DNA of 64,000 bases, from the NCBI GenBank assembly GCA_963754655.1, contig CAVWGN010000001.1, positions 2,016,001 to 2,080,000 of the forward strand, read 5' to 3'. A program made the translations under genes and the position numbers. The stretch comes from an uncultured Chlamydiae bacterium (GTDB lineage: Bacteria > Chlamydiota > Chlamydiia > Chlamydiales > Parachlamydiaceae). Within the stretch, counting starts at the first letter, position 1. Each line of letters begins with the position of its first letter. Of the stretch, positions 35,223 to 62,535 are shown piece by piece. The notes below the pieces were generated by a model, which was not told the origin of the DNA, made no database searches, and saw only the letters and a program-made list of their open reading frames with translations.

Positions 35223-35721
35223 GTACTCAACCACATTAGTTTTGTGTATTTAGACTGCTTCAAAGCCCCGGGGCTAGGGTGTTCATTTTGTGCAAAAAAT
35301 GAGCTTTATTTTTCACAATAATTGGCATAGTTGAATAGAAGGTCGCATGTTTATGCCGTCCTTTCAGGACTCGATGTCTTTTTGATAGAACCCAGGCCTC
35401 CGCTTCGCTGCGACCTGGGCTGTAACATGACGGCCCTTCAGGCCTTAACAAGAGATGTTTAAGTCTCTCTTCTATAGTCCCTAAATCATCTTTTTGTTAA
35501 GGCCTGAAGGGCCGTCATGTTACAGCCCAGGTCGCAGCGAAGCGGAGGCCTGGGTTCTATCAAAAAGACATCGAGTCCTGAAAGGACGGCATAAACATGC
35601 GACCTTCAATTTAACTATGCCAATTATTGTGAAAAATAAAGCTCATTTTTTGCACAAAATGAACACCCTAGCCCCGAGGCTTTGAAGAGTCTAAATACAC
35701 AAAACTAATGTGGTTGAGTAC
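35223..35721. repeat. Nested palindromic element: outer ~50-bp IRs enclosing an inner 392-bp TIR element (35277-35668) with REP-like arms
   Basis: Outer ends GTACTCAACCACA...TGTGGTTGAGTAC; inner ends TA-GGGTGTTCATTTTG...CAAAATGAACACCC-TA; arms are inverted copies around a ~45-bp core. Confidence 0.92.
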
Positions 35722-35770
35722 TAGGAACGAAATGCTTCTGGCAAACTCCAGAAGCTAAATTTGTCGCTCA

Positions 35771-36004
35771 AGCGGCGTTAGCCGCGCATGGATAGTAGCC
35801 GTGGGTGTAGGCGAAGCCGGAACCCACGGTGTATGGTAAAAAAAATGAAGCCACGTTAGTGGCGTAGGAAATGTGATGGTGGAGCAATGTTTATTTAAAC
35901 GAATGCTACGCCACTAACGTGGCTCAAATTTGTTTTTTGGGTAACCGTGGGTTTCGGCTTGCGCCTACACCCACGGCTACTATCCATGCGCGGCTAACGC
36001 CGCT
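35771..36004. repeat. Second REP-like palindromic element (inverted doublet)
   Basis: AGCGGCGTTAGCCGC...AGCCGTGGGTGTAGGCGAAGCCGGAACCCACGG at 35771-35829 is mirrored at 35945-36004; AGCCACGTTAGTGGCGTAG is mirrored by CTACGCCACTAACGTGGCT. Confidence 0.88.
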
Positions 36005-36080
36005 CGTCGCTGAGGGAAAGGATATGGATCAAGCAACATTGCAAAAACAAAGATAAAGATTCCAATTACCTAGCCATATG

Positions 36081-36224
36081 CCGGGACTTAATAAAGAACT
36101 GTTTTGGGGTTGATATTTTTCGCGTCATTTTCGGGAAATATCCCTCTAAAGTCTATTACAGGCGTGGTATTGTTAAATTGATGCGACGAATATCAAGTCC
36201 AAAACAGTTCTTTGTTAAGTCCGG
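36081..36224. repeat. Third imperfect inverted-repeat element (~145 bp)
   Basis: CCGGGACTTAATAAAGAACTGTTTTGG...TTGATATT versus AATATCAAGTCCAAAACAGTTCTTTGTTAAGTCCGG. Confidence 0.8.
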
Positions 36225-59878: not shown

Positions 59879-60176
59879 AATAGTCTGCTCCTAAAAATGT
59901 CTTGAAAGAGTTGTATTTATTTTCTTGGCTTTTGAATTGACAACATATCAATAAGAAAAAGTTTTTAAATATTTTTAAATTTTAAAATCAATTAATCCAA
60001 AAATTAATTTATATAGTTTTAGTCGTTTTTTTGCAATATTTAATTAAAAGATTAAACCAATAAAAATTTATAAAATTCAATTTTTATTGAAACCATTTAA
60101 AGAATTTTTATTTAACTATAAATAATTTTTAGGAATCTTTTACACAAAAATGAAGGCTGATATTCCTTATTAAAGT

Positions 60177-61556
60177 TTAGATAGGTCTGTAATGAATTTG
60201 TAAATTATTTAACCAGCTATTTATGTGATTTTTGATAAGGTAATCTATACCACTTATGTCGATTTTCTGACATTGTTGAACCAGCAACTCCTGTAGATTT
60301 GGCATTTTTTCAAGATATTGAATTCCTTCATTGTCAATATTAGGAAGAGAAGTTAGAGCTAATTCGCTAAGAGTAGGATGCTGAGCAATAATCTGCAAGG
60401 CTGTGTTATTTAGCCCTTCTAATCTGTCTAGATCTAACCTTTCTAAATGTAAATTGACCAAAAGGTTCCTGAGATCTACATCCGTTATTAACGGGCAATT
60501 AGTGAGGCGTAAATATGTTAATTTCAGATGACTCATTTTTTTTAAAAACTCTCCAGTTATTCGGCCTTGGGGCGTGGAGATAATCACAAGGCGCCGCAGC
60601 TTTGGTTGAGTTAAAGTAGAAGCACATTCATCGTCTAGGCAACCACCGAGAGATAAGGAGGTTAAATTAGTCAAAGTCTTCAATCTTGCCAACTCTTGAA
60701 CAGGGATATTTTGACTAAAAAGGCCCAGGTGTTGTAATCCAGTCAACTGAGCAATAGGCTGAAAGCTGTCTGGTGTTGGCGTTGTACAATTACCTAAGAT
60801 GAGATCCTGCAGTCCAGTTTGTCTGATTAGGTAAGCAAAATCACTATTCGGAATTGGCCTATTCGCTGTCCAAAGTCCTAGCCGTTTTAGAGAGGTTGTA
60901 GCCACAGAAGATATCAACTGGTCGTTTTCTTCCATATTGATGCCCCGTATGCGTAGAGTTTGTAACTTGGTAAGAGACTGGAACACGGGTTTTAAGGCCG
61001 AGCCACCTACGTTGCAGTAATCTATCTCGAAGTGCTCAAGCTTTTGCAAGGCAGTAAAGCGTAAGAAGCTCTCAGAACTCAAGTTTACAACTTGTGCACC
61101 CAATAACAGCTTATTGAGATTGGGTAACTGAATTAGCGAGCTTAGAGTTTCGTCATTGAATGAATAGCGAGACAGTTCATCATTAGGGGGGTTAATCTCT
61201 ACAACTCTCAGGTCTTTGCAAGAGTGCTTAGACATCTCATTAAGCATAGCTTGTAGATAAAACATCTCCCTTGATTTCTTGATGATAATTTTATCTGTAT
61301 ATGTAAAGACTAGAGAATACAACTTTTTGCTGGAACACAAAAGGCCCCGCAACTGAATAAGGTCTGTTTGCTGGATGATAGTCATCAAGATATCGGTCGG
61401 TAAACTAATAAAGAGTCCTTCTTCTTGAAGGCCTGTTATTTCATTAGTCTCAGGGCTAACACTTTCTCTTCTTCTCTTTATGCCTCCTGCTGATCTCTCT
61501 TCTAGAGGGTCAGCACAAGTCGCCATTGATTGAATTGAACTGACGGAGATATTCAC
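60177..61556 (-). CDS. F-box + LRR protein, copy 4 (GTG start)
   Basis: Same architecture; TAGGAG RBS. Confidence 0.85.
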   Translation of the reverse strand: MNISVSSIQSMATCADPLEERSAGGIKRRRESVSPETNEITGLQEEGLFISLPTDILMTIIQQTDLIQLRGLLCSSKKLYSLVFTYTDKIIIKKSREMFYLQAMLNEMSKHSCKDLRVVEINPPNDELSRYSFNDETLSSLIQLPNLNKLLLGAQVVNLSSESFLRFTALQKLEHFEIDYCNVGGSALKPVFQSLTKLQTLRIRGINMEENDQLISSVATTSLKRLGLWTANRPIPNSDFAYLIRQTGLQDLILGNCTTPTPDSFQPIAQLTGLQHLGLFSQNIPVQELARLKTLTNLTSLSLGGCLDDECASTLTQPKLRRLVIISTPQGRITGEFLKKMSHLKLTYLRLTNCPLITDVDLRNLLVNLHLERLDLDRLEGLNNTALQIIAQHPTLSELALTSLPNIDNEGIQYLEKMPNLQELLVQQCQKIDISGIDYLIKNHINSWLNNLQIHYRPI

Positions 61557-61870
61557 GATATTCTGCTCCTAAAATGTATTGAAAAAGGGTTTTATTTATT
61601 TTATTCGCTTTTGAATTGACGACATATCAATAAGATATTTTTTTAATATCTTTTAATTTTTGAAAATCAATTAATCTTAAACCTTAGTTTATATAAATTG
61701 AGTCGATTTTTGCAATATTTAATTAAAAGATTCAACCAAAAAAATTTTATAAAATTCAAATTTTAAAGAAATTTTATTCAAGTATGAATAATTTTTAATA
61801 ACTTTTAAAAAAATGGAGACTTGAAATAAACATTTCATTGATATAGATAATGGCAAAGCAAAAGACCTGA

Positions 61871-62535
61871 GTCCTCTTAGACACTAGCCTTTGCCTACTA
61901 GTACTCAACCACACTAGTTTTGTGTATTTAGATTGCTTCAAAGCCCCGGGGTTGAATTGACGTAAGTGGGTCCATATTGCTAATATTGACCCACTTACGT
62001 CAATTCAACCCCGGGGTTAGGGTGTTCATTTTGTGCAAAAAATGAGCTTTATTTTTCACAATAATTGGCATAGTTAAATTGAAAGTCGCATGTTTATGCC
62101 GTCCTTTCAGGACTCGATGTCTTTTTGATAGAACCCAGGCCTCCGCTTCGCTGCGACCTGGGCTGTAACATGACGGCCCTTCAGGCCTTAACAAAAAGAT
62201 GATTTAGGGACTATAGAAGAGGGACTTAAACATCTCTTGTTAAGGCCTGAAGGGCCGTCATGTTACAGCCCAGGTCGCAGCGAAGCGGAGGCCTGGGTTC
62301 TATCAAAAAGACATCGAGTCCTGAAGGACGGCATAAACATGCGACTTTCAATTTAACTATGCCAATTATTGTGAAAAATAAAGCTCATTTTTTGCACAAA
62401 ATGAACACCCTACCCGGGCTTTGAAGCAGTCTAAATACATAAAAACTAGTGTGGTTGAGTACTAGAATGGTTTTAAAATCCCTATGCGTTAATTTAAAAC
62501 CATCCTAATAGGCAAAAGCTAATGTAATCGAGTAC
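61871..62535. repeat. Four-layer nested palindromic element
   Basis: Outermost ACACTAGCCTTTGCCTA / TAGGCAAAAGCTAATGT; then GTACTC...GAGTAC (61901-62462); hairpin CCCCGGGGTTGAATTGACG...CGTCAATTCAACCCCGGGG (61944-62016); inner TIR element 62020-62410. Confidence 0.9.

Follow-up and report, generated by a model that had tools for sequence, protein, structure and literature searches.

Three long palindromes lie near 35, 47 and 62 kb of a 64,000-nucleotide stretch of DNA from an uncultured member of the Chlamydiae, and a fourth structure of related composition lies near 4 kb. The whole stretch, hereafter the window, corresponds to C1:2016001-2080000 of a genome of 3.16 Mb (38.8% GC, two contigs). 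This chlamydia-like genome encodes a DUF818 protein, and named records with the same repeat ends come mostly from Chlamydiae. The palindromes are real stacks of three or four mobile elements that carry no genes, and the explanation that we favor, and as a whole consider probable, is that these independent gene-less elements were likely stacked by successive transposition of the DDE type. Four layers can be told apart, from the inside out a hairpin pair (R) and three putative transposable elements of the miniature inverted-repeat kind (MITEs), namely C, B and A.

The layers were marked by the stepwise coverage across genome-wide matches to the window elements, which fall at 232, 226 and 294 loci. 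They occur alone and in many combinations, and each shell has its own ends, with varied contents and neighbors. A preliminary description of this DNA had proposed that non-autonomous elements form a modular hierarchy, with layers that can occur independently, and the genome-wide count of solo and nested layers agrees with it; the enzymes are encoded elsewhere. The sequences that it proposed are where it placed them for A at 35 and 62 kb and for B at all three loci (Table 1), as are the separate pieces near 17.0, 36.3, 36.45 and 38.65 kb; at 47 kb the right A arm does extend to 47771, but the left one is truncated. Its three loci and its nested shells stand, although the fourth copy, with a different outer shell, and the separate layer C between B and R had been missed. 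It rightly held that the part resembling repetitive extragenic palindromes (REP) is more GC-rich than its surroundings (R arm 52%, B arm 27%, flank 19%) and that the stacks combine an HUH-linked REP-like part with DDE-type MITE parts. No cognate transposase adjoins the window elements, as it had also noted, and the window's insertion sequence (IS) of the IS5 family (18443-19282) has other ends. At 35 kb the R arms are 194 nt long and 98% complementary around their 42-nt asymmetric core, and single-stranded folding of 61899-62464 gives z = -52.7 relative to 100 shuffles. The sole indication that the system may be active is the near-identity of its copies.

Table 1. Positions of the features in the window; the MITE assignments are predictions
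Feature	Position	Strand	Remark
A shell (IS630-like MITE, flanks CTG/TAG) carrying B	35223-35721		native H core lost, arms alike
B MITE, ends TAGGGTGTT, in A's CCCCGGGG site	35275-35670		
C MITE, ends GGCAT...ATGCC	35324-35621		
R doublet: two inverted triple-hairpin arms with a 42-nt asymmetric core between them	35350-35595		
Left A arm, truncated	46970-47011		
B with C (47061-47671) and an R array of three cores	47012-47720		
Right A arm	47721-47771		final base and flanking TA (47771-47773) form the metG stop codon
metG	47771-49840	minus	stop codon supplied by A end and TA
Degenerate, older A-family copy	61871-62535		younger A entered off-center at CTAG
A shell, CTA/TAG flanks	61901-62462		4 differences from the C1:2229866 copy, which has other flanks
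H hairpin, A's native core	61953-62007		
B MITE with C (62067-62363) and R doublet (62093-62337)	62018-62412		
Fourth copy: C (3868-4299) and two-core R array inside F shell (ends CTGAAG)	3799-4368		6-bp direct repeat flanks
A-family (L-type) arm remnant	16975-17020		
Second-family hairpin doublet, matches flank of the Y1 gene at C1:2802252	35795-35980		
J MITE, 143-145 bp	36082-36224		ends match the C1:427 kb full-length element (transposase family of B's parents)
G-family end fused to inner A arm	36279-36345		
A terminus fragment	36452-36476		
Inner A arm and left H arm, then hairpin from the family that flanks the C1:2939324 Y1 gene	38646-38754		

Layer B has a standard length of about 396 bp and, across the window copies, no open reading frame (ORF) of at least 100 aa. 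Its ends occur 186 times in the genome, and nearly all of them adjoin CCNGG-type sequence from several different repeat families. A scan across species genomes recovered B-type MITEs of 151-267 bp as well as L087, an element of 1729 bp with a 454-aa ORF and the same end as B. Full-length L087, L107, L111, L322 and L324 carry the TAGGGTGTT ends, and all of them except L087 have exact 9-bp duplications; full-length relatives in other chlamydiae, Nostoc and Thiodictyon likewise combine TAGGGTGTT ends with a 9-bp duplication. Ends and duplications could be resolved at 10/17 loci of relatives (L122 has no family-type ends and six gave nothing) and at 3/5 plasmid loci. In two other genomes B-type MITEs, retrieved with a search pattern that demanded CCNGG on one side, show by eye an exact 9-bp duplication in 6/6 copies with both ends visible. 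Within this genome, paralogues of the empty site, recovered by removing B plus k bases, peak at 9 bp (19/68 copies), with counts of 0, 1, 3, 12 and 8 at 0, 2, 7, 8 and 10 bp. The duplication lengths typical of IS families, beyond those in the papers cited here, are general knowledge. Judged by its ends and its duplication, B is a MITE of an IS256/hAT-like DDE family that lacks a named family model.

Since the parents' TAGGGTGTT ends include TA, this dinucleotide is part of B's end and not its target, as the preliminary description had it, and the 1/68 empty sites at 2 bp likewise speak against a duplication of TA. The idea that B aims at CCGG symmetry centers was not borne out either. Other candidates were rejected: a pre-existing site of two CCNGG around YTAR has only 2 matches in the genome, a 7-bp duplication for the B family was superseded by the 9 bp on full-length relatives, and the window IS5, the genome's IS5a and the IS4-like and IS1182-like elements, considered as cognates, have different ends and insert into repeats. 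B had no match in public plasmids. At C1:1907639, 1914413 and 1921984 a lone, older B-type end stands before a thioredoxin-like ORF in a triplicated region of leucine-rich-repeat genes.

The genome does hold relatives of B's parents with other ends, namely ISX and an element at C1:427 kb, the latter sharing its ends with the J MITE. ISX is 1846 bp long, has two overlapping ORFs and ten complete copies, nine of which are at least 99.3% identical, and is a 32%-identical relative within the transposase family of B's parents. Neither ISX nor 30 homologues matched any Pfam or NCBIfam model, including those for IS256, ISH6, ISLre2 and ISKra4; it is by these models that we call the family uncatalogued, and its atlas clusters and plasmid homologues are labeled hypothetical. 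A sequence search of the PDB returned nothing significant. The predicted structure (pLDDT 89) resembles the Hermes, P-element and ISCth4 transposases at E ~1e-4, with TM scores of only 0.24-0.42, and the invariant residues D62, D142, D166, H169 and E340 correspond to DDE plus DxxH. For ISX an RNase H core of the DDE type is predicted, bearing a helical insertion and a C/DxxH motif, of the IS256/Mutator-like kind.

Exact 9-bp duplications flank 9/10 copies of ISX, with the consensus RCCCNGGGY, and all ten copies adjoin a repeat on at least one side. In the roughly 0.25 Mb of repeats the strict 9-bp target was counted 228 times, versus 14 in the remaining DNA of about 2.9 Mb; the ratio is inflated, to the detriment of our argument, by the many target sites that are duplications themselves. 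A target confined almost wholly to repeats likely explains the nesting, and a GC-rich palindromic preference alone would steer insertions to Y1-type hairpins and to A's core in an AT-rich genome. Relatives of ISX in two other chlamydiae and three plasmids have mixed targets; the strict preference is therefore lineage-specific and not a trait of the whole family. Three unrelated IS also favor repeats, with repeat-flanked ends at 17/19, 21/22 and 6/8. As a separate observation, L104, an IS1182/IS5-like element with a 375-aa ORF at C1:8.3 kb and about ten other sites, sits in the first R hairpin or in similar loops, with a recurring 7-base flank and repeat-flanked ends in 21/22.

Layer C is represented by 90 pairs, 70 of them in standard B flanks; ten of the other 20 lie in unique DNA, and the rest in B variants or in the F shell. 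Of the copies in unique DNA, 7/10 are bordered by a direct repeat of 8 bp that has no more than one mismatch and is exact in three. A metagenome scan for C's end found 80 loci, including short MITEs with exact 8-bp duplications, and the same end bounds four elements of about 1.6-1.75 kb (L133, L174, L187 and L200) with ORFs of about 500 aa, three of which score weakly against IS256, ISH6 or Mutator models. With ends common to full-length IS and a fixed 8-bp duplication, C is a MITE as far as its sequence allows it to be classified. A profile comparison of ISX with C's transposase gave no significant link, and IS1595, ISL3 and IS1 were dismissed as drivers of C, the genome having no match to any of these families. 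Because C together with R is found inside both B and the F shell, the pair would have been captured twice. Two further observations concern these elements. The four long elements with C-type ends appear to form a second IS family of the Mutator-like kind that is poorly catalogued; its end is strongly conserved, its duplications are 8 bp long, and its MITEs occur in many metagenome contigs. The F shell has 16 end matches, mostly with 6-bp duplications, and near C1:501 kb (C1:500734) one F-like end adjoins a broken DDE_Tnp_1 gene, which is a possible parent.

The innermost layer leads to a different class of enzyme. Seven full-length matches to Y1 (PF01797) occur in the genome, one of IS605 type; the other six carry the DH[IV]H, WQ and Y---Q--HH motifs, which are the signature of subclass 1.2 when read against Table 1 of PMC6006769. 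The Y1 proteins here are about 148 aa long with a C-terminal tail, and the five genes scanned, one per subtype, passed the IS200 model and failed the RAYT model (NF047646), with at most 25 bits against a cut-off of 80. Five subtypes have open frames, and each is flanked on one or both sides by its own hairpin family. The gene at C1:395750-396202 has an R arm on both flanks (80-92% identity); in relatives, orthologues of this R-family Y1 that are 73% and 57% identical also adjoin an R arm, and those at 45-49% adjoin another hairpin family, which is also present in this genome. The RAYT/IS200 partner anticipated by the preliminary description therefore exists as a Y1 gene that matches R, but it belongs to subclass 1.2 and is not a classic RAYT. 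A gene flanked by matching ends was thus found for R, but none here has the exact ends of B.

The REP-like pair had also been thought to spread by itself. In this genome it is enclosed in DDE shells: C stands on the outer side of 231/287 central R hairpins, most of the others belonging to tandem expansions, to copies that an IS interrupts or to Y1 loci with deletions, and by inspection 0/101 R pairs are bare, all of them lying inside C or a C variant. In three other genera 10/17 R doublets are bare (at most 9 nt of extra inverted flank), with no duplication at the edge of bare doublets among the 17; that survey covered 20 self-chosen loci and three earlier ones, six of which had no full doublet. 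We infer that R would be REPIN-like in origin and cargo in this genome.

Several observations touch on Y1 loci and hairpin families in their own right. Internally deleted R-family Y1 loci with a short common end lie at C1:234, 630, 960, 973, 1797 and 2325 kb, several with direct repeats of about 6 bp that suggest another DDE shell around Y1 remnants. The end of the G family (window 36279-36302; 30 G pairs genome-wide) resembles the last codons of the Y1 gene at C1:2542121; it fits the terminal 10 bases of ISX better than the Y1 gene, and ISX-type ends may have been gained. At C1:1646440-1647100 the IS605-type Y1 gene stands beside an opposite, apparently truncated tnpB-like sequence that is ended by an A end. 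In another genus, L057 (G005:C41) has a B-like shell around a different hairpin doublet, which would be an independent capture of cargo.

The outermost layer, A, has 230 ends in the genome, 173 of them preceded by CTA. Its 78 simple complete copies contain H, B, G or L, and the main-type complete copies have TA on both sides in 39/42 cases and CTA..TAG in 34/42; CTA|GTAC terminates both the resident IS630 and its counterparts in three relatives. A is likely a TA-flanked, IS630-derived MITE. Arms of H adjoin A's inner arm or a B end in 57/61 cases, 13 elements consist of A and H only (with unequal inner arms in 11, by eye), and the H core recurs in TA-ended shells of related genera. These findings make H the core proper to A and rule it out as an insertion, including at 62 kb, where the preliminary description had seen a third hairpin as an insert. 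The fourth outer shell that it reported there is present, but is an older copy of the A family. At 62 kb B entered beside H, and at 35 kb H has gone.

The 62-kb stack has its nearest relative at C1:2229866, and the next nearest copy differs at 28 positions; the 35-kb stack has four other A-B-A copies of 496-500 bp with 3-19 differences. This suggests that whole stacks may move with A. Rare variants common to both arms of one B number 32, versus a mean of 1.2 and a maximum of 11 in shuffles. Copying from one arm to the other is therefore real, and it likely extends into the flanking sequence.

We propose that the stacks were assembled as follows. R would derive from the ends of a Y1 gene and likely spread bare once, as it seemingly did in related genera, before being captured inside C. 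The combination of C and R would then have been captured twice, by B and by F, and B with its contents copied to about 90 places, probably via ISX or a lost relative, at a 9-bp site for which Y1-type hairpins and the core of A are almost the only source. A would recreate CTAG at its own ends and likely carries whole stacks. Arm-to-arm copying would finally perfect the palindromes, erode the duplications of B and could delete A's core.

A number of observations weigh against assembly by successive DDE transposition. The genome yielded no homologue of the transposase of C and, at 96.7% completeness, no element with B's exact ends and a transposase. The ends of ISX (TGGGATGAG) differ from those of B, and its cross-mobilization of B is assumed. 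A and the resident IS630 have just 5 terminal bases in common, and near-identical stacks could instead stem from gene conversion. The direct 9-bp duplications of B are exact in only 2/68 copies here and have at most one mismatch in 14/68, the corresponding shuffles giving a mean of 6.1 and a maximum of 16, whereas exact inverted flank matches occur in 18/68; among asymmetric copies, the direct match is the better one in 26 and the inverted one in 23. These flank figures favor an explanation in which the palindromes formed in place with little insertion, by template switching and repeat recombination at short palindromic junctions, and the private variants mirrored between arms fit it as well. 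So do the tandem expansions of about 157 nt in the 47-kb R array, whose junctions are a 6-nt sequence common to the first and third hairpins. Formation in place nevertheless leaves unexplained the family-specific ends, the 9-bp empty-site peak, the exact duplications at ISX and at B-type MITEs elsewhere, and the 8-bp repeats of C, and we consider it improbable. Arm copying in place fits as a later modifier within the transposition model, where the empty-site peak at k=9 and arm-to-arm copying together reconcile the weak exact duplications of B with a 9-bp insertion.

We attach little credence to the possibility that subclass-1.2 Y1 (HUH) enzymes move whole stacks in the manner of REPINs, the shells being flanking DNA that was picked up. 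The R arms do match Y1 flanks, the five open-frame subtypes each have their own hairpin family, and bare R pairs without edge duplication exist in related genera; here, however, C surrounds most central R hairpins and bare pairs are absent, and the shells have DDE-type ends and duplications that match full-length DDE elements. It is very unlikely that the elements owe their retention chiefly to a role as structured RNA or DNA signals, for instance as terminators or as stability elements located downstream of genes. Conservation across genera is seen for the H core and the R arms and, with a crude ORF set, B occupies 25/246 convergent, 49/828 tandem and 13/318 divergent gaps, but this bias also fits tolerated insertions, the window has no Rfam match, and in three genomes of the same genus the L28-metG interval contains nothing, a gene, or repeats of other kinds. 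Genomes of that genus are too diverged from this one to give clean empty sites. The simplest reading would be selfish spread, with insertions tolerated where they lie. Some library methods can yield near-perfect long palindromes, yet an assembly artefact from fold-back reads or collapsed repeats is barely conceivable given the asymmetric cores, the unique flanks, the target duplications and the related structures in other genomes; in addition, a public run with gene pieces identical to the genome has a depth of about 50 on the 47-kb repeat versus about 3 on unique sequence.

Assembly by successive DDE transposition also admits a bolder extension, which we put forward tentatively and regard as rather doubtful: a lineage-specific branch of an undescribed IS256/hAT-like family may have become a site-specific DDE integrase for hairpin stems that subclass-1.2 Y1 proteins make, within a coupled HUH-DDE decoy system that renews itself and is tolerated by the host. 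Were this true, Y1 hairpins would seed landing pads that DDE MITEs use and re-sow, four IS families would be drawn into harmless intergenic stacks, and subclass-1.2 Y1 would be an unrecognized REP-generating class.

Elsewhere in the window, several ORFs between 10096 and 21655 contain 75-nt tandem repeats (53 copies of a 300-nt reference) and form a cluster of paralogous repeat proteins; DUF4116 was detected in the single ORF scanned. Between 55066 and 63868 lies a row of ORFs of similar size (406-467 aa), with leucine-rich repeats in both that were scanned and a weak F-box in one. Leucine-rich-repeat and F-box proteins are common in amoeba-associated chlamydiae.

The analysis resolves what was an opaque mosaic of repeats into parts that can be tested, and gives each of them its ends, a target and a candidate enzyme. 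REP-like units reach about 100 copies here as cargo of DDE MITEs, so that a high number of REP does not necessarily imply active HUH enzymes. Specialists may find two points of interest: in chlamydiae, hairpin arrays specific to each subtype accompany subclass-1.2 Y1 genes, which are tabulated as REP-less, and within a widespread transposase family still labeled hypothetical one branch has a strict 9-bp target that is palindromic. No account of these repeats in chlamydiae came up in a literature search whose scope left out most subscription papers, along with the supplements of PMC6006769 and PMC3733652, where Y1 flanks of this kind may be listed, and the available sections of PMC3184786 and PMC13229535 added no chlamydial case.

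Nested repeats, REP-targeting IS and MITEs are each known, and the concept is not new. This analysis adds an assignment of the stacks layer by layer, REP-like arrays at subclass-1.2 Y1 genes and a site-specific branch of an uncatalogued DDE family. IS that target REP were described in IS3, IS110, IS4, IS256 and IS5, with every copy of a given IS occupying one fixed point in the palindromic repeat and mismatched duplications ascribed to recombination between copies (PMC1525189, as far as its accessible text goes). The position of ISX beside repeats in 10/10 copies resembles that behavior; unlike those IS, its transposase matches no Pfam or NCBIfam family, the MITEs far outnumber the full elements, and they carry REP-like hairpins as cargo. 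The prokaryotic Mutator-like transposases IS256, ISH6, ISLre2 and ISKra4 are characterized in the consulted part of PMC3942029 by a DDE fold with helical insertion, DxxH and short inverted ends. The structural model of ISX matches ISCth4 and Hermes, and its ends are short and inverted, but neither it nor its 30 homologues score on any NCBIfam model of that group.

The R pair resembles the REPIN/RAYT system, in the parts of PMC3116915 and bioRxiv 10.1101/2021.07.10.451892 available to us, in that its two hairpin units are inverted relative to each other and match the sequence flanking a Y1 gene, and five clusters in PMC3116915 likely arose from REPINs inserting into or beside REPINs. It differs from that system in that the Y1 partner is of subclass 1.2, falls below the RAYT cut-off and has no class-2 Y---NP motif, that each R arm has three hairpins, and that the pair rides inside DDE MITEs. 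TnpA-Y1 proteins of subclass 1.2 are described as about 150 aa long, with DH[IV]H, WQ and Y---Q--HH motifs and several divergent copies per genome, and in Table 1 of the same source they are without REP and mainly cyanobacterial and Bacteroidetes in range (PMC6006769, main text). Here, instead, the genes are chlamydial, and the hairpin arrays on their flanks are specific to the subtype and recur across the genome.

Two sets of small repeats can also be compared with the stacks. In the accessible text of PMC3733652, GTAG-15 dimers lie in TATA-ended palindromes in Anabaena and CGTC-1 dimers in 41-bp palindromes in Halothiobacillus; those structures have two layers and no mechanism is given there, whereas the present stacks have three or four, and two shells are tied to full-length parent families. 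Layer A can be compared with IS630-derived MITEs such as RUP, ERIC and Correia. The pneumococcal BOX, RUP and SPRITE repeats cluster and insert into each other, and the ends of RUP are IS630-like (PMC3049150, in the portion consulted). Nesting is occasional there, whereas in this chlamydial genome the target is sequence-specific and the composites recur as units.

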